DNA of 64,000 nucleotides from Acidimicrobiales bacterium (GTDB lineage: Bacteria; Actinomycetota; Acidimicrobiia; Acidimicrobiales; JAKAVM01), in assembly GCA_027452005.1 (NCBI GenBank), contig DAIDHF010000011.1:443-64442 (forward strand), in the 5' to 3' direction. The position numbers were made by a program, and so were the translations under genes. The notes beneath the pieces were generated by a model, which was not told the origin of the DNA, did no database searches, and saw only the letters and a program-made list of their open reading frames with translations. Below, piece by piece: positions 14,771 to 44,277 of the stretch (position 1 is its first letter; each line of letters starts with the position of its first letter).

Positions 14771-15061
14771 TTGAAAGGACAAATTGAGGTGGACCAGGTG
14801 TCTTTAGAGGAAGTTGATGAGGGACTGACCGGGCTTGCCTGGAAACGCGTGGACAATGAGCTTGTTTTAGAACTCACCATGGCCGACTTTGCAAGTGCTT
14901 TGGAATTTGTGAACCAGGTGGGGGTCCTTGCAGAGGAGGTCAATCACCACCCCGACATCGAAATACGGTGGAACCGGGTTGTTCTTAGGCTTACTACACA
15001 CAGTATGGGCGCCCTTACCCAGAAAGATCTGGAACTTGCTAAGATGATCTCCTCATTATGA
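14771..15061 (+). CDS. Pterin-4-alpha-carbinolamine dehydratase (PCD/DCoH family)
   Basis: 'FVNQVGVLAEEVNHHPDIEIRWNRVVLRLTTHS' contains the family HHPD signature. About 96 aa, TTG start. Confidence 0.8.
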   Translation: MKGQIEVDQVSLEEVDEGLTGLAWKRVDNELVLELTMADFASALEFVNQVGVLAEEVNHHPDIEIRWNRVVLRLTTHSMGALTQKDLELAKMISSL

Positions 15062-28305: not shown

Positions 28306-29994
28306 GTGCGTCGTCTTCTAATGGTCGGGTTATTTACCGGGACAACTCTGTGCTGGTTTCTTGTGGGGGCCAACCCGATTGGTATGAACGTGGGCGCCTT
28401 GACCACGCCGAGGTCTCTAACAATTCATCCCGGGGCCGCCTCTACTTTGAGTTCAACCACTACTCAGGCCTCGGGACAGTACTATCTGGCCCTGGGTGAC
28501 TCGTTGGCTTATGGATACCAACCCAACTCTGTCCCGGCAACCCAGGGTTATGTAAATGACACCTACCTGGCCGAGCAGGCCAACTTTCCGGGACTCTCAC
28601 TTGAGAATCTGGGCTGTCCCGGTGAGACAACCACGTCACTAATCTCAGGGGGGATCTGTGCGTATTCGACCGGAAACCAGTTGGCTCAGGCCGAGTCGTT
28701 CTTGTCGGCAAATCCTGGCAAGGTAGCTTTTATCACCCTGGACATTGGGGCTAATGACGTAGATGGTTGTATCGGCTCTTCAGGAATTGACCTGAACTGC
28801 TTTCAGTCTGGCCTCAAGACGGTTGCCAGCAATCTCCCGAAGATTCTTGAAGGACTGAGGTCTTCAGCCGGGCCAAGTGTTCCGATCATCGGGGTCAACT
28901 ACTACGACTCCTTCTTAGGTCTTTGGGTAACCGGGGCAGCAGGTCAGTCCTTTGCCAAACAGTCTCTAGTGGGCCTGGAGATCTTGAATGGGACCATCGA
29001 CAATATATTTGGATCAAACGGGGATCTTGTTTCTGATACGGCTTCAGCTTTTGACACCAACGTAGTGTCCACAACCGATACCTACAACGGCCAGACGGTT
29101 CCCGTTGACGTCTATAACGTGTGCACGCTTACCTGGATGTGTTCTCAGGGCAATATTCACGCCAACACGGCCGGATACAAGGTTATGGCTGACCGCCTTG
29201 AGACGACAATCTCGCAGGCTCTTGGTTCGACTGGTATCAATCAGCCATCAGGTTGGTTGATCACGGGAGCTGGTCAGGTGCTGGGAATAGACCAGACCCC
29301 GACCTACGGGGACCTGACCTCAATTGCTCACAACGGCCCGGTCGTCTCAATTGCCTCCAGCGTTGATCACGCCGGTTACTGGTTGGCAGGTTACCACGGA
29401 GGTGTATTTGCATTCGGCGACGCTCACTTTTATGGATCTGGGTCAGATATAAATCTCGCAGGTCCCGTTGTAGCAATAGCACCATCTGGCGACGGGAACG
29501 GGTACTGGTTGGTAACCTCTCTGGGAGGGGTGTACTCCTTTGGTGATGCTGGCTTTTTTGGTTCTCAGGCGGGGCTGCCCATGTGGGGGACGGTGGCCAG
29601 CTTTGAGCCCACCCCAGACGGGAACGGGTACTGGATGGTGACCACCTTGGGCGAGGTAATAACATTTGGTGACGCTCAAAACTACGGATCTGACTTGGGG
29701 GCGATCGTCGGGACCGTAACCGGGTTTGCATGTACCCCAGACGGGAACGGTTACTGGTTTATTACCTCGGCTGGCTACGTGTACAGTTTTGGCCAGGCCA
29801 CCTACCATGGCGGTCCCGGACCGGGAGTTCAAAATGGCACCCCAGAAATCTACGCGATTGACGCAAGCTATTACCAGGGGGGGTACTGGGCAGTAACGTC
29901 CCAGGGGAACCCGGTAGCCTATGGCCCGGCCCCCAAGCTAATGGCGGTTCAAATACCGCTCCAAACTCCGCTTGTTGGGGCTATGCTTTTCTAA
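28306..29994 (+). CDS. Secreted SGNH/GDSL hydrolase with C-terminal GYW repeats
   Basis: Signal-like N-terminus. SGNH block I '[13 protein letters not shown]' and block III '[10 protein letters not shown]'. From residue ~316 onward the protein consists of GYW repeats. Confidence 0.8.
29251..29991 (+). repeat. About six to seven GYW-type protein repeats (coding)
   Basis: '[14 protein letters not shown]', '[22 protein letters not shown]', '[22 protein letters not shown]', '[22 protein letters not shown]', '[22 protein letters not shown]', '[15 protein letters not shown]'. Confidence 0.8.
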
Positions 29995-30014
29995 AGGCAG
30001 AGAATGGAGGCCAG

Positions 30015-31130
30015 GTGAGCAAGATAAGGGTTCTGGTTGGGACTAACAAGGGTGGCTTTGTAATTCGAGGTGACGCCAAACGAGACTCTTGGGAGATCTC
30101 TGGCCCGTTTTTCGAGGGTTGGCAGATCTACCATATGAAGGGATCTCCGGTTGACCCGAACAGGATATACGCGTCACAGTCAACCAGTTGGCACGGCCAG
30201 GTCATGCAGCGGTCCAACGACGGTGGTGAGACCTGGGAAACGGTAGGAAACGAGTTTATCTACGACGGGGTTCCCGGTACGCACCAGTGGTATGACGGGA
30301 CTCCTCACCCGTGGGAGTTTGCCCGGGTGTGGCACATCGAACCCTCCCTGGACGACCCGGACACGCTTTATTGTGGGGTCGAAGATGCCGCCCTTTTCGT
30401 CTCTAGAGACGGAGCCAACACCTGGAAGGAGATGTCGGGCTTTCGAGGGCAGGGAACTGGTTCCAGCTGGACACCGGGTGCTGGGGGGATGTGCCTTCAC
30501 ACCATACTTCTTGACCCAGTAAATCAGGACCGGATGTTTGCAGCCGTTTCTTCAGCCGGGGTCTTTAGGTCCGATGATCGAGGTGAGACCTGGAGGCCCA
30601 TTACCAAAGGCATAAGATCTGAGTTCCTCCCAAACCCAGATGCCGAAATCGGCCACTGTGTGCACCGTATAACCATGAACCCGACCAGGCCCGAGGTATT
30701 GTTTATGCAAAAGCACTGGGACGTAATGCGCAGTGACAACGCCGGTGAGTCCTGGTATGAGATAAGTGGAAACCTGCCAACTGACTTTGGGTTTCCAATA
30801 GCGGTAAGTTCAAACGAGCCAGATACGGTTTTTGTGGTCCCGATAACCAGTGATCTATTTCACGTGCCCCCTGAAGGTAAGCTCCGGGTGTACAGGTCTC
30901 AGGTTGGAGGCAACGACTGGGAGCCGCTCACCAAGGGCCTTCCCCAAGAGCACTGTTACGTCAACGTGCTTAGAGATGCCATGGATGTTGACGAGCTAGA
31001 TTCGTGCGGTGTGTACTTTGGGACGACGGGCGGGCAGGTGTTTATGTCTCCGGACTCTGGAGATACCTGGCAGACCCTAGCTCAAAGCCTCCCGTCTGTA
31101 TTGTCAATAGAGGTTCAAACGATCAGGTAG
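30015..31130 (+). CDS. Cytosolic BNR/Asp-box beta-propeller protein (sialidase-fold-like, no signal peptide)
   Basis: GGAGG then GTG 30015. Asp-boxes '[40 protein letters not shown]'. The N-terminus '[20 protein letters not shown]' is not hydrophobic. Confidence 0.8.
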
Positions 31131-31139
31131 GGACCGATT

Positions 31140-31499
31140 TTGGTGCAACCATCCAGAGAGTCCAGTGAGGCCACCACGACCACTGCAGAAGAGGCTTTCC
31201 GAGAAGTAACCGTGTGTTTGCCCGGTCATCTGCGTACGTTGGCCAACGTGGGCAAGTATATTACCTTGGGTGTAACAGACCCGGTTACCCCCAGAAGACT
31301 CCTGGACGTTCTTGAAGAACAACTTCCAAGTCTGAGAGGAACAATACGGGACCATGCCACTGGGTGTCGTCGCGCCTACCTCCGTTTTTACGCCTGCGAA
31401 GAAGACATCTCTCATGACTCCCTTGATGAGCCACTGCCACACGATGTAGTGGCGGGCACGGAACCCTTTATTATCATGGGAGCGGTATCGGGGGGATAA
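31140..31499 (+). CDS. MoaD/ThiS-like beta-grasp (ubiquitin-like) protein ending in Gly-Gly
   Basis: The C-terminus is '...EPFIIMGAVSGG*'. The body 'VTVCLPGHLRTLANVGKYITLGV...LRGTIRDHATGCRRAYLRFYACEEDIS' fits the MoaD/ThiS length and pattern. The start is uncertain: TTG 31140 lies 9 nt after the BNR gene, and GTG 31212 would give a ~95-aa protein. Confidence 0.6.
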   Translation: MVQPSRESSEATTTTAEEAFREVTVCLPGHLRTLANVGKYITLGVTDPVTPRRLLDVLEEQLPSLRGTIRDHATGCRRAYLRFYACEEDISHDSLDEPLPHDVVAGTEPFIIMGAVSGG

Positions 31500-31507
31500 A
31501 TTCATTT

Positions 31508-32638
31508 ATGACCTATGCAGTGAGAGCGAGATTAACGTCCGGCTTGAGTACTCCATGTACTCTAGTGCTCTCGTTGGCTTTACTCGCTGGACTAGCCGGA
31601 GGATGTTCAGGCTCTGGTGGTTCCCATCGCTCTCAATCTGGGCGTATTACCGCCAGGTCCAACGAGAACTTGCCGAGTAACTCCAAATCACTACTTTCCC
31701 CGTCGGAGATCGGCGTTACCGTCGGTGGAGGACTCAACTACTCGTTGCCCGGAGCCTTCAAAGCAGTGTCGAAAGCTGGCGTGGGATGGGTTCGGATGAC
31801 TATAGCCTGGAGCTGGGTCGAGCCGGAAAAGGGGAGGTTTGATTTTTCCAAATACGACCTGGCTGTTACCGCTGGGCGTTCGGCCGGGCTTGAGATTTTG
31901 GGCACGCTGGGTCTGGGGGTTCTTTGGGATACGGCAGCTCCACCTGGCGTGTTGGGGAATGAGCGTCTGGACTATCCGCCTAACTCAATGAGTGACTGGA
32001 ATGGCTATGTTAGAAGTACCGTGTCCCATTATAAGAACTCAATTCATTACTGGGAGATATGGAATGAGCCCGATCTGGAGGGATTTTGGCATGGTACCCC
32101 TGGTCAGTATGCAAGGCTGCTGGCCAACTCATACACAGACATCAAGGCGGTAGATCCCAGTGCCCAGGTCTTGTTAGGGGGGCTGTCTCTGGCGGGAACC
32201 CCGGGCCAATATGATCCTGACTTTTTCAGCCAGATCTTGTCTAATAAGGCTTACCCGGCAGGAAAGTTCTTTGACATTGCCAACTTCCATCAGTACGGGA
32301 GTGAGCATGAAGCCCTCATTAGGGATAGCTACGTAAATTCCCAAATGACCCAAATTGGGCTTCATAGGCCAATCTGGGTCACCGAGGTCGGGTACTCCTC
32401 TGACCCTTCCCTTCAAAAGCTCGCGGGATACTCTAAGGGGACTGGCCAAGGCAACCAGGCAGGCTACCTTCGAGACATGGTTGAGTATCTTGAACACGGA
32501 CTTAGAGTAAAGAAGTCATTTTGGTTTTCAATTCAAGATAATCCTAAATTGGGCCCAGAATTTTCTAATTACGGACTCCTTACGTCATCCAATCTGCCCA
32601 AGCAAGCCCTAAAGGAAATTGGACAGCTTGAAAAGTAG
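31508..32638 (+). CDS. Lipoprotein glycoside hydrolase, clan GH-A TIM barrel (GH5/GH39-like)
   Basis: Lipobox 'LAGLAGGCSGS'. Acid/base motif 'HYWEIWNEPD' and nucleophile motif 'IWVTEVGYSS'. Confidence 0.7.
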   Translation: MTYAVRARLTSGLSTPCTLVLSLALLAGLAGGCSGSGGSHRSQSGRITARSNENLPSNSKSLLSPSEIGVTVGGGLNYSLPGAFKAVSKAGVGWVRMTIAWSWVEPEKGRFDFSKYDLAVTAGRSAGLEILGTLGLGVLWDTAAPPGVLGNERLDYPPNSMSDWNGYVRSTVSHYKNSIHYWEIWNEPDLEGFWHGTPGQYARLLANSYTDIKAVDPSAQVLLGGLSLAGTPGQYDPDFFSQILSNKAYPAGKFFDIANFHQYGSEHEALIRDSYVNSQMTQIGLHRPIWVTEVGYSSDPSLQKLAGYSKGTGQGNQAGYLRDMVEYLEHGLRVKKSFWFSIQDNPKLGPEFSNYGLLTSSNLPKQALKEIGQLEK

Positions 32639-32717
32639 CTTGAAAGATGTAATGGGTTTGTTAGGAATCACCCGGCTGTCCTAAAGAAACGGGTAGCTTT
32701 ATTCGATAACTAAGCCA

Positions 32718-35234
32718 ATGATCTCAAGACTCGCCCAAAATTTAATTCAGGCCGTTTTGGTCGCAACCCTTGCCTCTATTGGGACTTTTTGGAGCATTGA
32801 CGCAGGGGCTCAAATGGCCCAGTCGACTCCTCAACTCACCTGGAACTCCCAGAGCTACCCTGGTGGCCAGGTTTTATACTCGGTATCGTGTCCATCTACG
32901 ACTACGTGTACAGCAGTTGGGAAGTCCGGAACAATTGTCGGGACAATAAATGCCGGTGGAACCTGGGTTAAAGAGACCTCGTCAACAACCTCAACCTTAT
33001 ACGGAATCTCGTGCGTGTCAACTTCTGAGTGTGTTGCGGTCGGCGCTGGGGGAACAGTTGTGTTCACAACCAACGCTGGGAACTCGTGGCAGGCCGGACA
33101 GTCAACCCTGACGACTAACCTCGACAGTGTGTCGTGTCCGTCTAGTGGGCAGTGCTGGGCGGTCGGGGCAAGCGGGGTAATTGTCGCATCGGGTGCAAAT
33201 AATGACTCGGGTCCATGGACCGTTCAACAGGTCGGAGGTGCCAACCTATATGGAATATCGTGTATCGATGTAACCGATTGCACCGCTGTCGGATTTGCTG
33301 GAGCGATCTTTGCAACATCTAATGGATCAACCTGGATGCCGGAGGTGTCTGGGGTGACTACTACCTTGAACACCATTAGTTGCGTTACCGCGACCCAATG
33401 TTGGGCAGCCGGTGGGTCACAGGTAATTACCACCCCAAACGGGTCTACCTGGCAAGCAACAGGTGGACTACCCAATGCATCGAGTCTCGAGGGGATTGAT
33501 TGCACAGATTTCCGAAACTGCTGGGTTACAGGGGTCAATCCTGGGACCGTGGATTCAAGCTCTGATGGTGGAGCAAGCTGGATCCAAGAGATGCCCGACA
33601 GCGGCAACTGGTTGAACTCGGTAAGTTGTGCAAATGCCACTCATTGTTGGGCCGTGGGAAATGGAGTAATAATGTCGGGCTTTTCACCACCAAGTGAGGT
33701 AAACCCGACAAGTCCGGTCTATAACGCAGATGCTCCCGATCCAGACGTCGTGTCATACCAGGGGACCTACTATGCCTTTACTACCGGGACCAAAGAGGCC
33801 CCTATAATTCAAATCTTGTCATCTGGCAATCTGGCATCGTGGAACTTGAACGGGAGCGCGTTGAAGAAGATACCCTCTTGGGAAAAGGTGGGAACCCAGG
33901 AGTCACCCGGTGTCTTCTTCTGGGATAACAAGTGGATTATGTACTACGCGGCCATTGAGTCGTCAACGAATACCAGATGTATATCCATGGCTACCTCGAC
34001 ACAGATTTTGGGTCCTTATGTGGACTCGACCTTGGGTCCTTTAGAGTGTGACCCGACTATTGGCGGAGCCCTCGATCCCCAGCCATTTATTGACCCTTCC
34101 GGGACAGCGTATCTGTACTGGAAATCCAACGACGGTCTAAGCGGAGTAAACGCTCAGATCTGGGTTGCCCCAATCAACAATACGGGGCTTCCCGAGGTTG
34201 CCTCGGCGACATCATTGATTACCCAAGACCAACCCGGCACCACCGAGGCCCCATTTATGCAGAGCTATTCAGGAACCTACTACCTGTTCTACTCGATAGG
34301 TAGCTGGGACAGCTCTAACTATGGAGTTGGATACGCTACTTGTTCAACGCCAAGTGGCCCGTGCACTACAACCCAGGTCAATTCGGTTATGTCATCTAAC
34401 TCATACGTACTTGGGCCCGGTAGTGCGTCGGTCGTCACAGATAACTCTGGGCAGCTTTGGTTGGCATATTGTGGTTGGAACGGTCCCACGTCAAAGTTTT
34501 CTTATGCCCAAGGCGACTACAGAAGCCTTTGGATGGCTCAAATGTCGTTTCCGGGAGGAGTTCCAACCTTAGATTTGCAACCACCTCAAGTTGCCCCGGC
34601 TCCTAACGTAACCGGGCTAAGCTCGTCAGTTGGTTCGGCGAGCGGCGGGGCAAGCGTGACTATTTACGGGAGTAATCTATCTGGGGCCATCGGGGTAAGT
34701 TTTGCTAATGCCCCAGCAGAGAGCTTTACGGTAGTTTCTCCTTCGCAGATTTCTGTTGTTACCCCTCCTGGGAGCCCGGGCACGGTTGACGTTACCGTTA
34801 CTACCCCTAATGGAGCAAGTGCAATATCATGCCAAGATCAATATACCTTTACTGAGTCCGGAACTGCGGAGTTAGGGGGATACTGGCTGGTAAGCTCCCT
34901 CGGTAGCGTATATGGGTGCGGGGCCAACTTGGCTCTAGGATCGGCGCCACCCGGGACACAGGGGGTGGTCTCAATATCACCAACAAGTGACGTCCAAGGA
35001 TACTGGCTCGCCAACTCACAGGGGTCCATTTATACTTTCGGCGACGCCTCCTTCTATGGGTCCATGGGGGGCAAGCCACTCAATCAACCCATTGTTGCCA
35101 TGGCGTCTACGGCCGATTCCAAGGGTTACTGGATGGTGGCCTCTGACGGGGGAATCTTCTCCTTCGGCGACGCCTCCTTCTACGGGTCCATGGGGGCTGT
35201 CCCAACTAACGGACCTATCTCGGCGATGGGCTAG
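32718..35234 (+). CDS. Secreted multidomain protein: Cys-pair 7-blade propeller + GH43-like domain + IPT/TIG + GYW repeats
   Basis: Signal peptide. Blades 'SCPSTTTCTAVG, SCVSTSECVAVG, SCPSSGQCWAVG, SCIDVTDCTAVG, SCVTATQCWAAG, DCTDFRNCWVTG, SCANATHCWAVG'. GH43-type motifs 'APDPDVVSYQGTYYAFTT', 'LDPQPFIDPSGTAYLYW', 'TEAPFMQSYSGTYYLFYS'. IPT-like 'GGASVTIYGSNLSG...VVTPPGSPGTVDVTVTTPNG'. Confidence 0.8.
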   Translation: MISRLAQNLIQAVLVATLASIGTFWSIDAGAQMAQSTPQLTWNSQSYPGGQVLYSVSCPSTTTCTAVGKSGTIVGTINAGGTWVKETSSTTSTLYGISCVSTSECVAVGAGGTVVFTTNAGNSWQAGQSTLTTNLDSVSCPSSGQCWAVGASGVIVASGANNDSGPWTVQQVGGANLYGISCIDVTDCTAVGFAGAIFATSNGSTWMPEVSGVTTTLNTISCVTATQCWAAGGSQVITTPNGSTWQATGGLPNASSLEGIDCTDFRNCWVTGVNPGTVDSSSDGGASWIQEMPDSGNWLNSVSCANATHCWAVGNGVIMSGFSPPSEVNPTSPVYNADAPDPDVVSYQGTYYAFTTGTKEAPIIQILSSGNLASWNLNGSALKKIPSWEKVGTQESPGVFFWDNKWIMYYAAIESSTNTRCISMATSTQILGPYVDSTLGPLECDPTIGGALDPQPFIDPSGTAYLYWKSNDGLSGVNAQIWVAPINNTGLPEVASATSLITQDQPGTTEAPFMQSYSGTYYLFYSIGSWDSSNYGVGYATCSTPSGPCTTTQVNSVMSSNSYVLGPGSASVVTDNSGQLWLAYCGWNGPTSKFSYAQGDYRSLWMAQMSFPGGVPTLDLQPPQVAPAPNVTGLSSSVGSASGGASVTIYGSNLSGAIGVSFANAPAESFTVVSPSQISVVTPPGSPGTVDVTVTTPNGASAISCQDQYTFTESGTAELGGYWLVSSLGSVYGCGANLALGSAPPGTQGVVSISPTSDVQGYWLANSQGSIYTFGDASFYGSMGGKPLNQPIVAMASTADSKGYWMVASDGGIFSFGDASFYGSMGAVPTNGPISAMG
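34875..35231 (+). repeat. Three GYW-type repeats (coding), including a 34-nt near-identical duplication (35037-35070 and 35163-35196, 1 mismatch, 126 nt apart)
   Basis: 'GGYWLVSSLGSVYGCGANLALGS', 'GYWLANSQGSIYTFGDASFYGSMGG', 'GYWMVASDGGIFSFGDASFYGSMGA'. Confidence 0.85.
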
Positions 35235-35261
35235 TTAGATTGGAAGTCTATCCCCGGAAAG

Positions 35262-37607
35262 TTACCCAAAAGGGGCAAAAGCGATTATTGGATCTTGTTG
35301 GACTGGTTGCGACCCTTGGCCAAGAGATCCCAAAAAGCCGGCATCGCCGAATGCGAATACGCCGCCGTCTGAGCCGATTAACCAGTAACCGCGTGAGTCA
35401 CCCGTGGAGGAAACTGCTACTACGGGCCCTCTGAGTGGAGCTACTGAGTTACCTGGTCCCGGTGGACGACCGGGATCGATCTGGTAGATAGAGCCACAAA
35501 AGCCAGCGTCGCCGAAAGCAAACACCCCACCGTCGGCCCCCACGAGCCAGTAGCCATTTGAGTCGCTCGATCTGGCCATGGCCACTACCGGGGAGACCAG
35601 GTGCAAGTTGCCCGTTGATCCAAAGAACTGGGCGTCGCCGAAAGCAAACACCCCACCGTCGGCCCCCACGAGCCAGTATCCCAGACAATCTTTTGTTGGA
35701 ACAATCGACTTGATTTGAGCGTTGAGAGTAAGGCCTAGTGAGACCAAATCGCCATAACTAACGGCGTCACCTTGGGGGAAGACCTGCCCCGACGAAGAGG
35801 CAAGCCAGAAACCTAGACCGTCACATGTTGAAGCAATTGCTACAAGTGGACTTGATGACTGGACCTGCGTGCTTATTTGAGGTACCTGACCAAAGCCATG
35901 GACCTGACTTGAGGTATCAAGGATCCAGTATCCCGACGAGTCTGGGGTCACCGCTATCGAGATAGCTGCGTTCCCACACGCACAACCATAGTCCCCAGCG
36001 CCACCATAGGAGTAAAGTAAACCCTGGCTAGTCAATAACCAGTACCCCTGGGGAGTTCCCGGAGAATAAAATCCAATTGGAAACCCTGAACTTGCCGGCA
36101 AGGGGTCTCCAAAGAAGTCCTGGTTTCCAGAGGAGACTATTGGTGTTCCCGAAACGAGAACTTGCGATCCCGGCACCACCATGTATGCTTTTTCGCCTGA
36201 CGACCCAGCTAGGTCGCTGCCAGCGGAGACAAAGTGTGGGTCAAGGGCGGTTTCTGTCGGGTCATTGGGCTGGTTGGGCATGGTAATCCCGAAAAAGTCA
36301 TTTGAGGAGAAATGAACTTGTGACTGGGAAGGATACTGGAAACTTCCCGTACCTTGATTGTCAACCAGATTATTCTGGAATGACCAAATTGAACCGGATC
36401 CAGTCCCACAGTTCTGGCAGCCTACTAAGTTAGCTGGTGATCCAATTGGAGTATATATCGTATTATTATATATAGATGTATTTGTCTGGTTGCTGTCAAA
36501 AGTAAAGACGCCTTTGACCCCACTAAATCCGTCATTTACACTTAGATTAAATCTAACAATCAGGTTATCAGAGGCTCCTCCCATCATGAGTAAGAATCCA
36601 CCTTGATTGTCATGGCTGTAGTTGTATTCAAGAGTGGTAGAACTACTACCTAAATCTACATCGAATCCCTCGCCGTCGGTTGTCTGAGTCTTGGTCCCGT
36701 ATACCTCATTGAACTCAACAAGAGCTCCAATATCTCTTGTTACCATAATTCCCACACTGGAGGCCTCCGAGGATCCGAGAATTGATCTTTGAGAGGCATT
36801 TGAAACTACGTTGTGTGAAATTTCAGGATCGAGCGATCCAAAGGAAATAATTCCGTCACCGTCAACATTTGAAACGGTGTTGTTGTTTATCATTACCCCG
36901 GTACTCAGTTGGCCTTGGTCTACCTCGAAATAATTTGAGACGTAATAGCTTTGATCCCAGACAACAATTCCCGAACGGCCAACGTTGGAGACTGAGTTTC
37001 CGTCGACGTCTACGTTTTGAAAGCTGTCGGGAGGATTGAGTGCTTCAACAACAATTCCCCCATTGACATGGGAGTCGACGTTTGAGCAGTTGAAGCATCC
37101 ATTGACGTTTGAGACAGTATTATTTGCGATTGTAATTCCATTAAGAATACCGCCCCATGAGTCCTCGACCAAGATTCCTTCACGAGACAGTCCGGGCGAA
37201 GAGAGGGTCCCGAAGTTATTGGAGCCAGAGTTATTTACTACGTTTAGTCCCTCGATTGTCCAGTACTGCTGGTTGAGCAAGTAGACCGATGCACCTGAAG
37301 ATAGGGCCGACCCGTCTATTGTTGGTGATGATCCCGATCCGTAGGATCCAATTAGTATTGGATTGGACCGAGCCCCAGAACCCGAAGGGTCCAGTTGACC
37401 CTGGAAGGTTTCGCCGGCATGAAAGAGAATCTTGTCTCCCGGGCTGAAGGTCTCTGAGTCCACCTGAGCCAAGGTTGCCCAAGGTGAGCCCGGGCTAGTA
37501 CCGGAGTTCGAATCAAGTCCTCTGGTGGAGTCAACATAAAAGCTCTGGTCACTTTGCTCAATTTTCCCAGAGGCCAGTCGTGGGTTGAACTGGACCGACC
37601 TGGGCAA
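35262..37607 (-). CDS. Right-handed parallel beta-helix (pectate-lyase/CASH-like) protein with six C-terminal GYW repeats
   Basis: Repeated 'I.NNTVSNV.G' turns ('ITIANNTVSNVNGC', 'VDGNSVSNVGRSG', 'INNNTVSNVDGDG', 'ISHNVVSNAS', 'LEYNYSHDNQGG'). The canonical start TTG 37607 leaves no signal peptide, but the in-frame upstream 120 nt encode one (see findings). Confidence 0.8.
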   Translation of the reverse strand: MPRSVQFNPRLASGKIEQSDQSFYVDSTRGLDSNSGTSPGSPWATLAQVDSETFSPGDKILFHAGETFQGQLDPSGSGARSNPILIGSYGSGSSPTIDGSALSSGASVYLLNQQYWTIEGLNVVNNSGSNNFGTLSSPGLSREGILVEDSWGGILNGITIANNTVSNVNGCFNCSNVDSHVNGGIVVEALNPPDSFQNVDVDGNSVSNVGRSGIVVWDQSYYVSNYFEVDQGQLSTGVMINNNTVSNVDGDGIISFGSLDPEISHNVVSNASQRSILGSSEASSVGIMVTRDIGALVEFNEVYGTKTQTTDGEGFDVDLGSSSTTLEYNYSHDNQGGFLLMMGGASDNLIVRFNLSVNDGFSGVKGVFTFDSNQTNTSIYNNTIYTPIGSPANLVGCQNCGTGSGSIWSFQNNLVDNQGTGSFQYPSQSQVHFSSNDFFGITMPNQPNDPTETALDPHFVSAGSDLAGSSGEKAYMVVPGSQVLVSGTPIVSSGNQDFFGDPLPASSGFPIGFYSPGTPQGYWLLTSQGLLYSYGGAGDYGCACGNAAISIAVTPDSSGYWILDTSSQVHGFGQVPQISTQVQSSSPLVAIASTCDGLGFWLASSSGQVFPQGDAVSYGDLVSLGLTLNAQIKSIVPTKDCLGYWLVGADGGVFAFGDAQFFGSTGNLHLVSPVVAMARSSDSNGYWLVGADGGVFAFGDAGFCGSIYQIDPGRPPGPGNSVAPLRGPVVAVSSTGDSRGYWLIGSDGGVFAFGDAGFLGSLGQGSQPVQQDPIIAFAPFG
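35265..36047 (-). repeat. Six GYW-type repeats (coding)
   Basis: 'GYWLLTSQGLLYSYGGAGDYG', 'GYWILDTSSQVHGFGQ', 'GFWLASSSGQVFPQGDAVSYGD', '[22 protein letters not shown]', '[22 protein letters not shown]', '[22 protein letters not shown]'. Confidence 0.85.
35506..35678. repeat. 47-bp perfect direct repeat (35506-35552 and 35632-35678), 126 bp apart
   Basis: Both copies read gcgtcgccgaaagcaaacaccccaccgtcggcccccacgagccagta, checked base by base. On the minus strand each encodes [16 protein letters not shown] in adjacent protein repeats. Confidence 0.95.
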
Positions 37608-37767
37608 TAGATGGATTCGGCCACCTTTGACATGTAATCCCGGGGCCGGGTCGAAAATTATACTGATGACAAGGGCCAGAGCAACAGCTACGGTCGATCT
37701 AACGTAACGAGTATATATAATGGTTTTCTATCGGAAGATGCGTACAAGTACTGTAGAAAACTTACTC

Positions 37768-40700
37768 CTAAACACTTGATTCAACATCGTCCAACTCTTC
37801 ACTGGCAGATCTCCCATGCCGTACTCGAAAGTACAACCAAAAGATTCCAGCAAATACCGTAAAGCCTAAAAATAGGTACAGCATAGACATCATGTTGGCA
37901 GTCCGGTTGCCACCGAATCCAGCTGCTGATGGGTGCATGATGAACTGGACAAAGATAAACATGATTACCAGGTACAGACAAGCCCAGGCGGCCTTTGACC
38001 AGTGATAAACCGTGTCACCATCTAAGTACTTCATCGGAATCAGGCCAAAGAGGAGGCTCTGGAGTCCGCATATCCAAACGGTTGCGAGCAATGAATCTAA
38101 GGCCAGCATGGTAAAGGAGTGATTCCCGGAGATGACCGAGTCCTTTACCGGAATCCAGATAACCCACGAAAGTGCTGATACCAAGATCAGCCATATTGAG
38201 GCTAGTGTTACCGACCGCCCATCTTCGGCCTTGGTCGGCTCAATGCGGAAAACTATTGCTGCAAACACCCCGAAAACGTATCCCGGCTCGAAGTGGCTAA
38301 TCCTAGAGAAGATTACCAAGATAGCAGCTATTGCAACTCCCAAGGGGAATGCTCTTAGGTCACCTATCTTGTTGAATCGACGTCTAACGTAAACTCCTCT
38401 GGCAATCTCGGTCGTGGCTGTTGTAACTAAGATCGCCCCCACGTATCCGGCGATTTCGGCCATCGACGACACGTTGAAGCCGAAGGTTGGGTCAACCAGG
38501 GCATACAGGGCAGATCCAACAACCGAAAAGAGGATAAGGAGGGCACCGGTATGTAGTGACTGGAGCCAGGACTCAATTTTGTCTACGGCTCGCCTGAGGA
38601 TACCGCGCGACTGGGCAATAGTCTTGTGATGTTCTTTGAGTGTCGAGTTGAACAGGGTGGCCGGTAGGGCAACCAGCAAGATCAACAGGAGTGCAATTCC
38701 GGCATTCTGGGTCACATTTTTAGCGGTGACCAGATGGAAGGCTTCGGTGGGCGAAGGGATGGAGTCCGCCAGGGGAGCCGGGCCGGGAGGTCCACCACCT
38801 AGACCAAGGCCGTATCCCTTTTGGTAGTTCATTGCCGGGCCTCGCTGTCCGGCATTGACCAATGCCTTTACGTCAGCCTTGGTTACCACGTTCCCGTTTG
38901 AAATTGATGATACCGGCTGGGGGAGGGATACCGCCAAAGTTGTACCCGTAGAGCTTGAACTTATCGCATGAGATTTGTCTTTCGAGGTAATGCTCGTTGA
39001 GGTAGAGGGTGCCTGGGTGGTTGGGGTGGATACAATAGCGCTTGTCGGAGAGGACGGAGCTACTGGAGTGCTTGTTGTAACGACGACCGGTGAGGGTGGA
39101 GCAACATTCTGCACGACAGGAAGGGCAGCAGTTGTGGTCGGAGCAACTGTAGTAGGAGCCAGGCTCGTCGACGTGGTAGTCGTGGTCGTGGGGTTAGTCG
39201 TAGACGTCGTAGTGGTAGTCGCAAGCCAGTCAACCGCAAAAATTGTTGAGTGGGCTATCCCACCCGAATCAGTAAATGACCCGGTTACACTGTCTGTTCC
39301 CGGACCTCCAGTATCGGTATAGGTCCAAGTCGCCGTCCCCGTTGAATCGGTTATTGCCGTACCGGACTTTCCCGCGTTGGGCCCTGAGGTAACCGAAAAG
39401 TTTACCGTAACTCCAGGTTGGCCAGAAGAAGTATGTGAGATCGATTGTGATTGGAGAGTTGAAGTAGACGCCGATACGTTCGTGCCAGATGACGACTTTA
39501 ACTCGGTTGAAATGTTCACAGCAACGAACACCGACAACGACACACCTTTACCGGCCGTTCCCGAGATAGGACCTGAACCACCGGAAGACCCAATAGTTGA
39601 CTGTGGCACCCAGGTAATTTGAAGAGTATTGGACTGAATCTGGGTATTACTTGTCGGATCTACCATGGTTGCCGATAGAACGTCGACACCCTTCTTTTGC
39701 GCAGTAACTGTAAATATGGCTAAACCTTTGGCATTAGAGGTAGTTGCCAGTGTCTGGCCAGTATCCGGGCCAGAACTCACCGTAAAGGTCACGCTTGCCC
39801 CAACGAGCGGGATTCCTGAGCCATCCAGACAACTTGCCGTTACAGTAACGCTCGAAAGGGCATCGGCTCCTGTGGCACTGGCTGTGAGCGTAACCGAGTC
39901 TTGCAAGGTAAAGTCCACGTTGATTGACGCCATGGCCGTTGTGTTCGTTGTTGGATTTAGGTATCTAGCAGTTATTGTGTCAGTCCCTGACTTCCCGTTG
40001 TTCGTGAACGTGAAAGTTGCGCTACCCGATGAGTTGGTCGTGGCCTGAAACGTTGAGATGGACGTACCTGAATCTTGACCGCTAGATATATCGAAAGAGA
40101 TACTGGCGCCTGTAATCGGGATGGTCGTGATTACCCCGGTGGACGAATTGGTCGTGGTCTGGGTCAAGCTAGCAATTAGGGTAACCGACGAGCCGGGCTT
40201 TAGAGTAGTTCCGGAGGCGACCAGGCTTATCGAGTCACTATTAGAAGGTGGTGGGGGTGGTGCCAAACTGGTGAACTGATCAGCCAACGAGGTACTCGAG
40301 GTACCTCCGAGGGTGGTAACAGTTATGTCAGTTATTCCCGGAGCTTGTGCTGGAGCCACTGCGGATAACTGGGTTGAAGAGGTATAGGTTACCGACGTTG
40401 AGAGGTATTGGCCGAAAAACACAATTGCGTTGTCGGTAAAGTTTGTTCCGGTTACAGTTACAAGAGTCCCGCCAGCACTTGATCCCCCGGTTGGAGTTAT
40501 GGCCGTGACTGTAGGTAGTGAAGGAGCAACAAGTGAATAAGAGTTGCTCGTAACCGGGACAGTGTCGGCTTGGGTGTCTATTGTCAGAGTGTAAGTTCCT
40601 AATGCTGGCGGATTTCCGATATTATTCGCATTGATTGTTACGACCGTACTTGACCCAATGGCGCTGGCAAGTGTCAAATTTAGAGATTCACCAAGTGGCA

Positions 40701-43700
40701 AAGCCGCGCTTGGGGCTACTCCATTGATGGAGTAGTCATTTGGGTTGCTTGGTAACACGGTACCTTCTGGAAAGTTTATAGCTATTGATTGACCTACGCT
40801 TAGAGATCCAGTTGTACTAGTAGTGAAGCCAAGCGTGTAGTTTGAAAATATTCCCGAGTTCACGGTGGTAACGTTGGCAGTTGCCGAAGTGACTGCCGTG
40901 CCAATTATGAAGTAGTCACCAATCGATGAAGTGTCGGAGGACGTGGCAACATTCAAGACCTCCGGCCCAGGTATCGCAGAATTTGTTGTAAGTGCAGCTG
41001 ATATATTTACCAAAGTGTCTGCACCGATGGGGCTCCCTAAAGTTAGCAGAACCGATGAGGTCCCGCCTCCAGTTATTGCCGTTGGAGGGACTCCGTTTAC
41101 TGCATAGTTTGAAGCTGAGGAGGAAAAAACAGGACCAGAGGCCGTCGAGAGCGAAATTGTAGATCCCGATGTCAAGGCTCCAGTGGGTGACGTAGTAAAG
41201 GCTATCGAATAGTCCGACGTGGCTCCCGCGGTAGGAGGAAACGGAACCGGAGCACTTACTAGAGCCACCTGATTGCTAATGGAAATAGTTCCGTCACTTA
41301 CAGGAAGTAGGTCAGAGGAGGTACTTATATTGATAGAGAAACTGCTGACTTCATTTGGATTTACCATCGAGGTAACAGTTATGGTCACAGCATCACTAGC
41401 ACTTATCGGACATGGGTTCTGCAACGTTACCGCGGTTGTGCTAAATCCCAAGATCGTTGAGACAGTACAGGTTGTAGAACTTGTAGTGTCGTGTACCTGG
41501 TAGTCAGTAGGACTGTTTGGAAAGATCATTCCAGTGCCAGCGAGGACAATGGCCGATGATGACGATAGCGCACCTGAAGAGCTAACGAAAAAGGAGATGA
41601 TATAGGTTGTGGTTGAACCCGGAATAGTTGACGTAGCCGAGATGGTACCCGGTGAAATTGATGTCGGGGCCCCTGTGATGACGAAGGAAACAAAGGCGAG
41701 GGAGGTTACAATCGTCGAACCATTTGCGTCATCTCCAGTAGTTGAAACCCCAATACTATAGGTTCCGGTTGTCGATGGATTGGTAACGCTAGCAATTGAA
41801 ACCGAAAAATTAGTCGAGTTGCCAATTGATACTCCAGATGGGACTGGGAATGTGACACTCCAGTCGCCAGTCGTTCCTCCCAGAGTTGGAGCTGCTGCAA
41901 GTTGGATCCCGTCAACAACGTAATCAGACGCTGTTGTTGGAAATGGGTTGCTAGTTGTATTTGCAAAGAGCGAAATGTGGCTAAGCGAAGCTGAACTGAG
42001 CGCTCCAGTCATACTAGTTGAGGTGTTGATCACGTAGTTAGAGCTGGCACTAAAAGAGGGATTTGATAGATTTATTGAAGGAGCATTAACTGTCGTCGTA
42101 GTTGTCCCAATATCGAGGAAATTAGTGGAAGCGAGTCCAGTGTCGGCCGATGTCGCTATAGTAGCCTGATACTCCCCGGGTCCCGACGGGTTGGTTGCGC
42201 TAGAGCTGATTCCGATCAGGACCGTAAAGTAGGTATTGGCAGAAAACCCAGCAGTACCTACCGTTAGAGTTACCGTGCCAGATCCGAGGGTTATTGCAGA
42301 GCAGTTCGTGCCAAGGTTGCATGCAGACGCATTTATTGAGTAATCAGCGCTAGGACCCGGTAGCGTAAATGAGCTAGGTAACCCAATGGTAACGGTTGAG
42401 CCCGGTGACAAGCCAGCAGTTGAGTAGAAGTTAGCAGTTAATGTTGTCAGCGCTCCCGAGGCGGTAGAACTATCTGCAATTACCGGGTTTAGTACTTCAT
42501 TTGCGGTCCCGCTATTTAGAGAGAAAGTGAACGGTGCTGGACCCGGATCAGTAGTTGTAAAAATGTAACCCGTAAAGGGGCCAGTTATAGATGGATTGAT
42601 TAGTCCGTTTGCAACTACAGTTACTGGAACTAACGGAGAAATGGTCCCAAACATGTTTAGAGTACTCGGAATCTGGAGTTGATAGCCACCAGTGGAAGGA
42701 GGACACGATGCGGCGCTCGCTGTGGTTACCGCTAAAGGTCCAGAGCCACCCTGGGCGACAGTGTAGTCACTTGCTGAACTAGCAAGTGTATAAGATGTGG
42801 TTGGAAGACACAGAGATATGTAATCGCCACCTGGAACCTCGTTAGTTGGGGTAAAAGTAACAGATATACTTGTTGATTCAGAATTTCCCGCAATTGTTCG
42901 AAGTGAGTTTGAAGGTCCCCCAGTCTCCCCGGTAACAGTTGTGGCAATGATGATTGGAGGCAGACCTACCGGGGCCGGATCGGTGGAGGTTGAAATAACA
43001 GCGTTTGAGTAGTTCATAGCAACTGTGGGATTTATGACGTTAGCTATGGAAACTGATACCGCTCCGGCTGAGGACACCGAGACTGGGGAGGTTATTGAAA
43101 CTGTTGTCCCGCTTATATTGACGGCACTAGCTGCAACTGAGTTTACAACATAGTCGCTTGCAGTTGTGGGGAGAGTTGTGGTTTGGGGCGCGGTAAAAAC
43201 TATCAGAGAAACCCCCGAAGTTATGCCACTAGTCGCGCTAAATCCAACGGTCCAGTTCACCGAAGGGGCCCCAGCTGCATTATCTGACAAGGCAATAGTT
43301 GCGCTCGTAACCGCCGTACCTATTTGAAAAGTTGAGGAGTTGACTACAGCTGTATCACGGCTCGTACTAAGTCCAATCGTGTATGATCCTGCTGTAGATG
43401 GATTTATTACACCGTAGACTTCAACGGCTATTGTAAGGGGGGTCGGACCGGAATATCCGCCGATAAATCCATACTCTGGAACAGTTATTGTCGCTGAAGG
43501 TCCAGATATAGTCGGTGCTGACAAAACCGGGACGTAGTTGACAAAATAACTAGATGGCGAAGACGGCGGTGTCGTTCCAGACGGAAACGCGATCGTAATT
43601 GTATCCACCGAACCAAAAAGTGCCCCGTTGGTTGACGTGTCAAAATTAAGCGAGTAGTTGGCCCCGCTAGCTGCTACTTGAGTGTCTGAAATATTTGGCG

Positions 43701-44277
43701 ACCCAGCCCAAGAAATTGAAGTATAAATAGGTATCGGACCCCCTGAAAGTCCAACTGGCGTGGTGTCCGAACTCGTGTTTCCCGTGATGGAATATGAGCC
43801 ATTTGGAGGGTTGATAACCCCGTTCGCAACTAGCGTAAGAGGACTTGAGTTTCCAATTGCAACAGGAGTAGTGATTACGACTTTTTCTCCCCCGTTGGAC
43901 AGGATTACAGATTGGGTAGCCTGAGGACCTCCTCCAGTACTTATCGTGTAGTTCGAGGGCTGATTGGAGAAGACCATCCCGAACTGGGCAGTAAGGGTTA
44001 TAGTGCCAGATCCCGCAGCCAGAGCACCGGTAGCAGAAGTGGTCAGGCTAAAGGTATAGTTGGCAGTTGCCCCAGGTGAATTTGATGACTGGCTGAGAAG
44101 TAAGAAAGTCATCCCTGCTGCAGCTTCACTTTGAAATACCGGGAGCAAACCGAGAATAATGAGTACCCCAACTGCAATTGCCGAGGAAACTCTTCGAACC
44201 AGGTACCGGGACCTGCCGGTTCGACTCGGGGGTGAAATTCTTTCCACGGCCTCACTTTTCTTGCAAAGAGTATTCAA
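37768..44277 (-). CDS. 2169-aa cell-surface protein: signal peptide, at least 9 tandem ~100-110-aa modules, IPT/TIG, Big_1-like repeats, Thr/Pro/Ser linker, polytopic C-terminal membrane domain
   Basis: N-terminus 'RRVSSAIAVGVLIILGLLPVFQSEAAA'. Modules recur with 'P..AS[DN]Y.V' and 'V.GVINP...G.Y' landmarks. IPT 'GGTLVTVTGTNFT'. Linker 'TTTTTSTTNPTTTTTTSTSLAPTTVAPTTT'. The last ~420 aa contain about 8-9 hydrophobic helices, including 'LLFGLIPMKYLDG'. Confidence 0.85.
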   Translation of the reverse strand: MNTLCKKSEAVERISPPSRTGRSRYLVRRVSSAIAVGVLIILGLLPVFQSEAAAGMTFLLLSQSSNSPGATANYTFSLTTSATGALAAGSGTITLTAQFGMVFSNQPSNYTISTGGGPQATQSVILSNGGEKVVITTPVAIGNSSPLTLVANGVINPPNGSYSITGNTSSDTTPVGLSGGPIPIYTSISWAGSPNISDTQVAASGANYSLNFDTSTNGALFGSVDTITIAFPSGTTPPSSPSSYFVNYVPVLSAPTISGPSATITVPEYGFIGGYSGPTPLTIAVEVYGVINPSTAGSYTIGLSTSRDTAVVNSSTFQIGTAVTSATIALSDNAAGAPSVNWTVGFSATSGITSGVSLIVFTAPQTTTLPTTASDYVVNSVAASAVNISGTTVSITSPVSVSSAGAVSVSIANVINPTVAMNYSNAVISTSTDPAPVGLPPIIIATTVTGETGGPSNSLRTIAGNSESTSISVTFTPTNEVPGGDYISLCLPTTSYTLASSASDYTVAQGGSGPLAVTTASAASCPPSTGGYQLQIPSTLNMFGTISPLVPVTVVANGLINPSITGPFTGYIFTTTDPGPAPFTFSLNSGTANEVLNPVIADSSTASGALTTLTANFYSTAGLSPGSTVTIGLPSSFTLPGPSADYSINASACNLGTNCSAITLGSGTVTLTVGTAGFSANTYFTVLIGISSSATNPSGPGEYQATIATSADTGLASTNFLDIGTTTTTVNAPSINLSNPSFSASSNYVINTSTSMTGALSSASLSHISLFANTTSNPFPTTASDYVVDGIQLAAAPTLGGTTGDWSVTFPVPSGVSIGNSTNFSVSIASVTNPSTTGTYSIGVSTTGDDANGSTIVTSLAFVSFVITGAPTSISPGTISATSTIPGSTTTYIISFFVSSSGALSSSSAIVLAGTGMIFPNSPTDYQVHDTTSSTTCTVSTILGFSTTAVTLQNPCPISASDAVTITVTSMVNPNEVSSFSINISTSSDLLPVSDGTISISNQVALVSAPVPFPPTAGATSDYSIAFTTSPTGALTSGSTISLSTASGPVFSSSASNYAVNGVPPTAITGGGTSSVLLTLGSPIGADTLVNISAALTTNSAIPGPEVLNVATSSDTSSIGDYFIIGTAVTSATANVTTVNSGIFSNYTLGFTTSTTGSLSVGQSIAINFPEGTVLPSNPNDYSINGVAPSAALPLGESLNLTLASAIGSSTVVTINANNIGNPPALGTYTLTIDTQADTVPVTSNSYSLVAPSLPTVTAITPTGGSSAGGTLVTVTGTNFTDNAIVFFGQYLSTSVTYTSSTQLSAVAPAQAPGITDITVTTLGGTSSTSLADQFTSLAPPPPPSNSDSISLVASGTTLKPGSSVTLIASLTQTTTNSSTGVITTIPITGASISFDISSGQDSGTSISTFQATTNSSGSATFTFTNNGKSGTDTITARYLNPTTNTTAMASINVDFTLQDSVTLTASATGADALSSVTVTASCLDGSGIPLVGASVTFTVSSGPDTGQTLATTSNAKGLAIFTVTAQKKGVDVLSATMVDPTSNTQIQSNTLQITWVPQSTIGSSGGSGPISGTAGKGVSLSVFVAVNISTELKSSSGTNVSASTSTLQSQSISHTSSGQPGVTVNFSVTSGPNAGKSGTAITDSTGTATWTYTDTGGPGTDSVTGSFTDSGGIAHSTIFAVDWLATTTTTSTTNPTTTTTTSTSLAPTTVAPTTTAALPVVQNVAPPSPVVVTTSTPVAPSSPTSAIVSTPTTQAPSTSTSITSKDKSHAISSSSTGTTLAVSLPQPVSSISNGNVVTKADVKALVNAGQRGPAMNYQKGYGLGLGGGPPGPAPLADSIPSPTEAFHLVTAKNVTQNAGIALLLILLVALPATLFNSTLKEHHKTIAQSRGILRRAVDKIESWLQSLHTGALLILFSVVGSALYALVDPTFGFNVSSMAEIAGYVGAILVTTATTEIARGVYVRRRFNKIGDLRAFPLGVAIAAILVIFSRISHFEPGYVFGVFAAIVFRIEPTKAEDGRSVTLASIWLILVSALSWVIWIPVKDSVISGNHSFTMLALDSLLATVWICGLQSLLFGLIPMKYLDGDTVYHWSKAAWACLYLVIMFIFVQFIMHPSAAGFGGNRTANMMSMLYLFLGFTVFAGIFWLYFRVRHGRSASEELDDVESSV

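Follow-up and report, generated by a model that had tools for sequence, protein, structure and literature searches.

The window analysed here is a 64,000-nucleotide stretch of the genome of an Acidimicrobiales bacterium (GenBank assembly GCA_027452005.1, contig DAIDHF010000011.1, positions 443 to 64,442 of the forward strand), in which a 42-residue repeat forms the C-terminus of four proteins: a BNR/immunoglobulin-like (BNR/Ig) protein, an SGNH esterase, a glycoside hydrolase family 43 (GH43) protein and a beta-helix protein. The predicted propeller-type fold and the predominance of arrays of 6, 12 and 18 units across the family show the repeat to be the blade of a predicted six-bladed beta-propeller domain of about 250 amino acids (aa), which is unannotated. 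It is rather probable that this propeller is lectin-like and binds the cell wall of Acidimicrobiia, that it tethers exoenzymes and Ig stalks and targets autolysins and phage lysins, and that short arrays oligomerise into a ring; of these parts we infer the ligand, the retention at the surface and the formation of rings by fragments. The original prediction, made from the letters of the DNA alone, had offered a propeller and a wall-binding repeat as two options, and both appear to be true together.

A hidden Markov model (HMM) of the unit was built from seven well-kept window units and run on the six-frame translation of the window. It recovered 19 copies of the 42-aa unit, all within the open reading frames (ORFs) of the four proteins and none elsewhere, and the best units scored at E-values of 1e-20 to 1e-24. 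The arrays lie at the extreme C-terminus of each protein, as had been read from the sequence:

14084-14560, plus strand: tail of the BNR/Ig protein, four units starting at 14084, 14204, 14330 and 14456, the first of them degenerate (HMM hits and boundaries)
29251-29991, plus strand: tail of the SGNH esterase, six units starting at 29251, 29374, 29500, 29626, 29749 and 29881 (HMM hits)
34878-35231, plus strand: tail of the GH43 protein, three units starting at 34878, 34998 and 35124 (HMM hits)
35265-36047, minus strand: tail of the beta-helix protein, six units at 35934-36047, 35814-35933, 35682-35813, 35556-35681, 35391-35555 and 35265-35390 (HMM hits)

The copy numbers first given for the BNR/Ig, GH43 and beta-helix tails are thus retained, and the six to seven copies assigned to the SGNH esterase are corrected to six, of which units 1, 5 and 6 are very degenerate by identity to the core consensus. 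The GH43 tail begins at GYW and its final segment is a closing strand (...NGPISAMG), and unit 5 of the beta-helix tail holds a 13-aa loop insertion. The exact 42-aa period that had been noted holds for the well-kept window units and, family-wide, for 466 of 580 successive spacings. The DNA identity between window units is only 40-72%, with a single pair (BH_4/BH_5) at 84%, which means that it is the protein sequence that has stayed similar, and that neither a recent duplication nor an assembly artefact accounts for the resemblance. Recent DNA duplication or assembly collapse as the origin of the repeat or of the short arrays was ruled out on these identities and on the recurrence of the 3-unit form in independent assemblies.

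To delimit the family, 1.84 billion representatives of clusters at 50% identity were compared with a 42-aa unit profile, which matched 19,338 of them at E <= 1e-3 and 9,000 at E <= 1e-30. A scan of one genome per species gave more than 590 confirmed stretches, from the best 80 of which the taxonomy and loci were taken. The family consensus of the unit is GYWLVASDGGIF[SA]FGDAxF[YF]GSTGxxxLNKPIVGMAxTPDGx, and about 30 of its 42 positions are conserved at 75% or more in every blade, across clusters sharing less than 50% identity. Exactly six units are present in 104 of the 120 best homologues and in 88 of the 108 carrier ORFs found at the species-genome loci (80 genomes), and most cases with one to four units among those 108 ORFs are frameshift fragments or contig-end run-offs. 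The best 150 of the 19,338 representatives mostly have six units, followed by 12, and one has 18. Copy numbers at 6, 12 and 18 point to a fixed-size six-unit domain and not to an open-ended array.

The AlphaFold2 model of the beta-helix protein tail (residues 515-781, 70-sequence alignment) is all-beta, with a predicted local distance difference test score (pLDDT) of 91.4 and a predicted template modelling score (pTM) of 0.89, so that an ordered repeat fold is predicted for the six-copy tail. DSSP assigned 18 strands (6 x 3) and a final C-terminal strand at 260-266, derived from the PIIAFAP segment; as DSSP gives three strands per unit, the DAxFxGS segment may stand in for the fourth. Foldseek comparison of this model with the PDB and with the BFVD viral models returned only beta-propellers, mostly seven-bladed WD40/RCC1 proteins, with a TM-score on the query (TMq) of at most 0.63. 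On the model, the fold class is clearly that of a propeller, with no close structural relative. Moreover, in 162 of 173 cellular C-terminal six-unit domains no strand precedes the initial GYW, and an additional LNKPIVGMA strand is found at the end. Such an arrangement is to be expected in 'velcro' closure, where the final strand of the chain supplies the missing part of blade 1, and the terminal PIVGMA strand appears to do this and to close the predicted ring. The earlier suggestion of a propeller built from ~42-aa blades is therefore supported by the confident all-beta repeat model, by Foldseek matches to propellers only and by the copy numbers.

The carriers are concentrated in one class. 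The best 80 species genomes are almost all metagenome-assembled genomes (MAGs) of Acidimicrobiia, labelled Acidimicrobiales, Acidimicrobiaceae, 'Actinomycetota' or 'Actinomycetes', and include one cultured isolate, Acidithrix ferrooxidans PY-F3; the nearest homologues of the window carriers likewise come from Acidimicrobiia or 'Actinomycetes' MAGs. Two carriers stand outside this range by their bins: a 1243-aa ORF with 12 units on DAHVCH010000009.1 (L060), binned as a Thermoplasmata archaeon, and a carrier on DASYKI010000013.1 (L063), binned as Candidatus Dormiibacterota. They may reflect mis-binning or transfer outside Actinomycetota.

As had been supposed, the repeat falls outside any named family. 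The full proteins and the tails were compared with Pfam-A (2025 copy) and NCBIfam (June 2026) down to an E-value of 10, and no model of either library covers any of the four tails, even at E <= 10. Sequence searches of the PDB with a single tail and with a 70-sequence profile returned only noise (crystallin, Fab, TBP poly-Q and fascin), and no description of the domain was found in the literature on the repeat motif, on Acidimicrobiia wall propellers and on propeller endolysins. Among wall-binding families, LysM, SH3b, CW_binding_1/2, SLH, PG_binding_1, LGFP, ChW, CW_7 and SPOR gave no match on the tails in Pfam-A or NCBIfam, and the known propeller-lectin families (RSL/AAL, tachylectins, tectonins and PLL) gave no Pfam match and no PDB sequence match. 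WD40 had no Pfam match on the tails or on the consensus, and neither NHL (PF01436) nor SGL matched the four tails or the idealised consensus at E <= 10. Homology to NHL, suspected from the motif pattern, was rejected accordingly; NHL matches do occur in some homologues, at locations within them that were not mapped, and NHL does not match the consensus repeat. Homology to RCC1, also suspected from the motif, was rejected because the best scores were 16.3 bits against a cutoff of 22 (RCC1_2, PF13540) and 13 against 21.7 (RCC1, PF00415); the RCC1/RCC1_2 matches on the tails have E-values of 0.009 to 2.2, below threshold, and the repeat has a period of 42 aa and six units, whereas RCC1 has seven blades of ~50-60 aa. 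The idealised six-copy consensus obtains small whole-protein E-values for CSD_RNase_II, SH3_YKFC_2nd, the myosin XVIIIa SH3 and Ribosomal_L24e. These matches (PF23163, PF23795, PF24556 and PF01246) were dismissed as artefacts, since one fragment of 15-20 residues (AATPDGKGYWLVASDGG) is summed over the six copies and no stretch passes alone. The same summing explains the odd public name 'ribosomal protein L24E' and the Pfam labels on homologues (e.g., P0007, P0054, P0091, P0094 and P0040), among them PF23795, SH3_YKFC_2nd and CSD_RNase_II.

Placement at the C-terminus, constant in the window, does not extend to the whole family: among 149 representatives the array is C-terminal in 116, N-terminal in 21, internal in 10 and alone in two, and 112 of the 149 begin with a hydrophobic N-terminal segment. 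The partner domains in the three samples examined were of extracellular types. Of the 120 closest homologues, 47 carry a Pfam partner and 29 of these partners are peptidoglycan-active; CAP (5) and NPCBM (4) are found among the others. In 131 diverse representatives the partners were arrays of Ig-like, TIG, fn3 and PKD domains, other propellers, subtilases, PhoX, polysaccharide deacetylase and CHAP. The counts for the two other samples are the following:

Peptidoglycan-active partners (29 of 47): NlpC/P60 11, CHAP 8, VanY 4, M23 2, YkuD 2, Amidase_2 1, 3D 1
Partners in 78 carrier ORFs from species genomes: SpoIID 5, Beta_helix 5, TIG 3, YkuD 2, CHAP 2, and single cases of Amidase_3, Amidase_2, NlpC/P60, subtilase, GDSL, GH43, CAP and purple acid phosphatase

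The classical modules that anchor proteins to the wall of Gram-positive bacteria, such as LysM, SH3b, SLH, CWB2 and the choline-binding repeats, have this same range of partners. A C-terminal sorting signal in the style of T9SS-CTD or PEP-CTERM was ruled out, as the element is a predicted propeller of ~250 aa that also occurs in N-terminal and internal positions and on endolysins without a signal peptide.

These endolysins are encoded by phages. The scan of IMG/VR gave 88 confirmed stretches, from which 80 loci were kept, and their six-frame scan yielded 81 carrier ORFs, 70 of which were scanned with Pfam. Two units are present in 41 of the 81 ORFs, three in 32, six in four, 12 in two, and one and five units in one ORF each. 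In 73 of the 81 the two or three units stand at the extreme C-terminus, mostly of proteins of 230-390 aa. An N-terminal Amidase_2 domain was found in 53 of the 70 scanned carriers, most viral carriers match PHROGs endolysin or amidase families, the inspected phage carrier sequences lack a signal peptide, and the loci are flanked by tape-measure, tail-sheath, major-tail and integrase genes. The array lies C-terminal to the catalytic domain of lysis proteins and so fills the slot of the cell-wall-binding domain in the endolysins of phages with Gram-positive hosts. All 69 phage short arrays (69/69) possess an extra leading strand (GGAVDITRT...) and end right after FGDAxFYG, that is, they consist of whole blades without a closing strand, a register that differs from that of the cellular domains with their GYW start and closing-strand end. 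With few exceptions, the copy numbers in phages (2, 3, 6 and 12) divide six or are multiples of it, a pattern that fits 2-blade chains trimerising and 3-blade chains dimerising into a six-blade ring.

A minority of the viral carriers have six or 12 units and no recognisable partner, namely those of L081 and L082 (1025-1067 aa) and of L084, L085 and L111 (~434 aa); they could be receptor-binding or structural proteins, not lysins. The metagenomic phage Caudovirales GX15bay in GenBank (L161, MK557849.1, 2791-6705) encodes a 1304-aa tail-region protein, beside a minor tail protein, with two blocks of about six degenerate units at residues 455-704 and 1004-1197. The only partner domain that Pfam detected in the large viral carriers with six or 12 units and in the GX15bay protein was one PG_binding_1. 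The deposited name of the GX15bay protein, 'glycoside hydrolase family 25', was not reproduced, as no GH25 or other Pfam match was obtained at E <= 1e-4. Its role may be that of a tail fibre with propellers or of a lysin associated with the virion.

Wall binding is proposed because both the partner catalogue and the phage endolysin fusions point to it. The propeller would be a multivalent, lectin-like binder of the Acidimicrobiia cell wall, recognising peptidoglycan or a conserved wall-linked glycan, and multivalent propeller lectins typically show conservation like that found here, with about 30 of 42 positions kept in every blade. The domain would retain on the surface of the producer the secreted enzymes that carry it, such as the SGNH, GH43 and beta-helix proteins of the window, and also the long Ig-like stalks, and it would bring the catalytic domains of autolysins and phage endolysins to their substrate. 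Arrays of two or three blades, as in the phages and in the GH43 tail of the window, would complete the six-blade ring as trimers or dimers. The broader proposition is that a so far undescribed wall-binding domain runs through the class, with a fold unlike that of any known wall-binding module, and that 2- and 3-blade phage chains and 6-, 12- and 18-blade cellular chains are made from one blade and the phage lysins are natural 'split propellers' that need trimerisation or dimerisation; taken as a whole, we hold this to be plausible but slightly doubtful.

Several known systems share some of these features. RSL, BambL and AAL, the fucose-binding lectins of Ralstonia, Burkholderia and Aleuria, are six-bladed rings of near-identical blades of ~40-45 aa, with a site per blade or blade interface. 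The chains of RSL and BambL have two blades and trimerise, and AAL is a six-blade single chain, which parallels the 2-, 3- and 6-unit forms of the repeat. Unlike these lectins, the repeat domain is fused to enzymes and is mostly actinobacterial or from actinobacterial phages, and no sequence relation was detected in Pfam or the PDB. The Gram-positive wall modules (LysM, SH3b, CW_binding_1, CW_7, SLH, CWB2, GW, PG_binding_1 and LGFP) have the same partners as the repeat (NlpC/P60, CHAP, M23, amidases, YkuD, SpoIID and unrelated exoenzymes) and, like it, either follow the signal peptide or end the protein, standing at the C-terminus in phage endolysins. They differ in that none of them matches the tails in Pfam-A or NCBIfam and, to our knowledge, none of the known Gram-positive wall-binding families is a beta-propeller. 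WD40 and RCC1 proteins have the general fold in common with the repeat domain and are its best Foldseek matches, and the G-x-V-F-x-F-G-D-A-x-F-x-G-S of the repeat superficially resembles the RCC1 motif 'G.vy.wG.n..GqLG'; they differ in having seven blades and are largely intracellular protein-binding platforms or nucleotide-exchange factors.

Fragment-built propellers offer a further comparison. The designed 2- and 3-blade 'Pizza' fragments derive from the NHL sensor domain of M. tuberculosis PknD, and the best structural matches of the 4-unit model of the window include PDB 6r5y, an eight-bladed propeller made of two 4-blade fragments, and 6r60. Such constructs show that chains of two, three or four identical blades can complete a ring by oligomerising; they are engineered or laboratory products, whereas the short arrays of the repeat are natural genes. 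PknD is likewise an actinobacterial extracellular propeller of 6 x ~42 aa, and the repeat tails lack the NHL signature (PF01436). A phage-encoded propeller is also known: the receptor-binding protein gp45 of the staphylococcal phage phi11 (PDB 5EFV) contains a propeller 'platform' with an N-acetylglucosamine (GlcNAc) pocket, proposed to recognise a wall glycan (PMC6115969). The GX15bay tail-region protein with its two propeller blocks may be analogous; the gp45 platform differs from the repeat domain in having five blades and in belonging to a receptor-binding protein of the tail instead of forming a lysin module, and 5EFV was not among the top 50 Foldseek PDB matches listed for the six-unit model.

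The two short tails of the window require separate consideration, as genuine 3- or 4-unit cellular forms are essentially absent among the 108 carriers in other genomes. Both the GH43 and the BNR/Ig tail keep the cellular register, from GYW to a closing strand, which is what is expected after in-frame loss of internal units. The 838-aa form of the GH43 protein with three units recurs without change in length in three assemblies that are 98-99% identical in it, which, together with the independent contig L162, shows that it is not an assembly error. The other GH43 fusions in the family (P0011, L029) have six units. A dimer of the 3-unit GH43 tail could close a six-blade ring with swapped terminal strands. 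The AlphaFold model of the 4-unit tail (residues 1600-1769) has a pLDDT of 88.4 and a pTM of 0.83, with a low-confidence stretch over the last ~20 residues and no closing strand. In Foldseek it superposes on four blades of seven-bladed propellers, with a TM-score on the target (TMt) of ~0.4, and on the fragment-built 6r5y (TMt 0.65) and 6r60. The four-blade superposition and the unplaced end strand argue for an open arc and not for a closed four-blader; a closed four-bladed, hemopexin-like propeller was rejected because the listed Foldseek matches are larger or fragment-assembled propellers and the C-terminal strand is unplaced. The early caveat that three or four copies cannot close a ring without oligomerising thus holds, the 4-copy tail being modelled as an open arc and 2- and 3-unit arrays being the standard phage form.

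A number of observations weigh against a wall-binding, ring-forming propeller and give room to other explanations. No homologue with a solved structure or a known ligand was found in the PDB sequence searches, and ring closure and any pocket are predicted from the pTM, the strand pattern and the copy-number statistics. Many partners, such as GH43, SGNH, subtilase, PhoX and other propellers, are not wall enzymes, and a substrate-binding or general glycan-binding role would suit them equally well. The carrier P0105 and a large viral-contig carrier in L086 also hold PG_binding_1, so that the propeller is not always the sole candidate for wall binding. That the propeller is a carbohydrate-binding module (CBM) for the polysaccharide substrates of its enzymes, plant or microbial glycans and not the cell's own wall, and raises the local substrate as CBMs do, is nevertheless unlikely. 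The window repeat does follow GH43, an SGNH esterase and a pectate-lyase-like beta-helix in a glycan-degradation neighbourhood, all usual CBM positions, the family includes NPCBM, polysaccharide deacetylase and other glycan-active partners, and near-identical blades suit a multivalent lectin; on peptidoglycan hydrolases the wall would merely happen to be the substrate. However, one conserved blade is found on enzymes with unrelated substrates (subtilase, PhoX, purple acid phosphatases, CAP and peptidase A4) and on Ig-only proteins, and phage Amidase_2 endolysins, which have the host wall as their sole target, routinely carry it as their C-terminal module; a single ligand for all partners is more simply a wall component. 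We consider it improbable that the propeller is instead a docking or oligomerisation module without a glycan ligand, whether for an S-layer or scaffold, in the manner of dockerin and cohesin, or for multimerisation of the enzymes. Beta-propellers are common platforms for protein interaction, the best Foldseek matches are WD40 proteins, the 2- and 3-blade forms imply self-association and some endolysin C-terminal domains oligomerise, but protein-binding propellers usually have divergent blades and here six are near-identical. In addition, the inspected phage endolysins have no other recognisable wall-binding domain (Amidase_2 only in Pfam), and no conserved partner gene was noticed beside the carriers, although this was not examined systematically.

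The remaining difficulty for the wall-binding propeller concerns the window proteins themselves. Four blades cannot make a six-blade ring by homo-oligomerisation, and the 4-unit tail is possibly an eight-blade dimer or a non-functional remnant. The mean identity of the window units to the 22-residue core consensus is 12.4, compared with 17.1-17.4 family-wide, and 53% of them score 12/22 or less, compared with 12% in the family. Only five of 19 window units, none of them in the SGNH tail, retain the near-invariant Asp8, compared with 92% family-wide. If each blade carries a site, such degenerate units leave few intact sites in the window proteins. The same figures speak for a reading confined to the window organism, in which the tails are decaying remnants of six-unit domains and do nothing for the four enzymes, as do the near-absence of short cellular forms elsewhere, the cellular register of the short tails, as after in-frame unit loss, and the open arc with a disordered end modelled for the 4-unit tail. 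We find this reading very improbable, since all four reading frames are intact, the length of the 3-unit GH43 form is unchanged in three assemblies, both six-unit tails still give confident HMM matches, the beta-helix tail still folds confidently in the model, and 3-unit arrays are a working form in phages. The substitution rate in the GH43 gene is 1.7-2.5% in the tail and 0.7-1.7% elsewhere, with too few changes for the difference to carry weight. The window organism may belong to a deviant lineage where selection on the module has been relaxed or altered; the G+C content of the window is 52% and that of eight viral-contig loci, the only loci compared, is 61-71%. The four window carriers are probably a wall-tethered set for glycan degradation with unusually eroded anchors.

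At least 19,338 clusters (50% identity) have no curated model in the libraries tested and are at present mislabelled, for instance as 'ribosomal protein L24E' or SH3_YKFC_2nd. With a proper model, annotation would reach a large part of the proteins secreted by Acidimicrobiia, a class that is abundant in soils, peat, mine waters and the sea but poorly cultured. If the propeller binds the wall, it would define how these bacteria display their exoenzymes. As an endolysin targeting domain it would then be of a structurally new class, and could help to assign hosts to phage contigs and serve as a specific probe. The natural series of 2, 3, 6, 12 and 18 blades in two registers is a direct system for studying how propellers arise from oligomerising fragments. 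Should the phage lysins be split propellers, they would correspond in nature to the designed Pizza fragments and to the oligomeric intermediates proposed in propeller evolution, and Acidimicrobiia, most of which are uncultured, could be specifically labelled or lysed with their help.

The genes of the four carriers, and a segment upstream of one of them, are located as follows:

9254-14563, plus strand: BNR/Ig gene, 1769 aa, secreted, with an N-terminal part, six Big_1 Ig-like domains (six Pfam stretches) and the four-unit tail
28306-29994, plus strand: SGNH/GDSL esterase gene, 562 aa, secreted, with Pfam Lipase_GDSL at residues 60-298 and the predicted C-terminal six-unit propeller
32718-35234, plus strand: GH43 protein gene, 838 aa, secreted, with a Ycf48/BNR-like propeller, Glyco_hydro_43, TIG and the three-unit tail (ORF and Pfam)
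35262-37607, minus strand: beta-helix gene, 781 aa, with a right-handed Beta_helix and the predicted C-terminal six-unit propeller (ORF and Pfam)
37608-37727, minus strand: signal-peptide-like n-region and h-region (YTRYVRSTVAVALALVISIIF), in frame upstream of the TTG start of the beta-helix gene (translation and codons)

Pfam recovered the partner domains that had been described from the sequence, Lipase_GDSL in the esterase, Glyco_hydro_43 with TIG and a Ycf48/BNR-like propeller in the GH43 protein, Beta_helix, and Big_1. The N-terminal part of the BNR/Ig protein resembles an Asp-box propeller, which Pfam did not confirm, and gave a weak match, below cutoff, to the NCBIfam glycosylhydrolase model F510_1955. 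Secretion, assumed for all four, is evident for three proteins, including the esterase with the hydrophobic, signal-like N-terminal segment read from its sequence; in the beta-helix ORF a signal-like segment is found only upstream of the first canonical start. This segment lies between the upstream stop and the TTG at 37607 and could be started only by ATT or ATA. Translation may begin there at a non-canonical codon, or the start codon may have been lost. In L001, a homologue of the beta-helix protein (62% identical) has six units and an ordinary Met-initiated signal peptide, and a 45%-identical homologue of the SGNH esterase in L076 also has six units. The GH43 and beta-helix genes are convergent, with 27 bp between their stop codons, and their arrays abut head-on (35232-35264) as an inverted pair of coding repeats. 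On the independent ENA contig L162 the synteny around the GH43 gene is the same, including the convergent arrangement of the two genes.

The neighbours of the carriers in the window are glycan-active and surface proteins, among them four that lack the repeat:

15058-16815: carboxylesterase
30015-31130: BNR/sortilin-like propeller
31508-32638: clan-A glycoside hydrolase with a lipoprotein-like N-terminus
37768-44277, minus strand: 2169-aa Ig-like giant protein with a C-terminal multi-pass membrane region

The repeat thus marks a subset of the secreted proteins and not all of them. The 2169-aa protein consists of long Ser/Thr-rich Ig-like repeats with a Pro/Thr-rich linker, for which Pfam gave only weak Big_1 and DUF2808 matches, and several hydrophobic helices lie within its last ~400 aa, the region in which an LPXTG motif or a propeller tail might be expected. 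This hydrophobic C-terminus would be a different mode of surface retention for a giant protein in the same organism. A second repeat family is common to two window proteins, the 612-aa membrane protein encoded upstream of the BNR/Ig gene (7259-9097) and the N-terminal third of the GH43 protein (32718-33700), which have in common a Cys-rich Ycf48/BNR-like propeller repeat with motifs such as 'SCPS...C.AVG' and with PSII_BNR matches in both.

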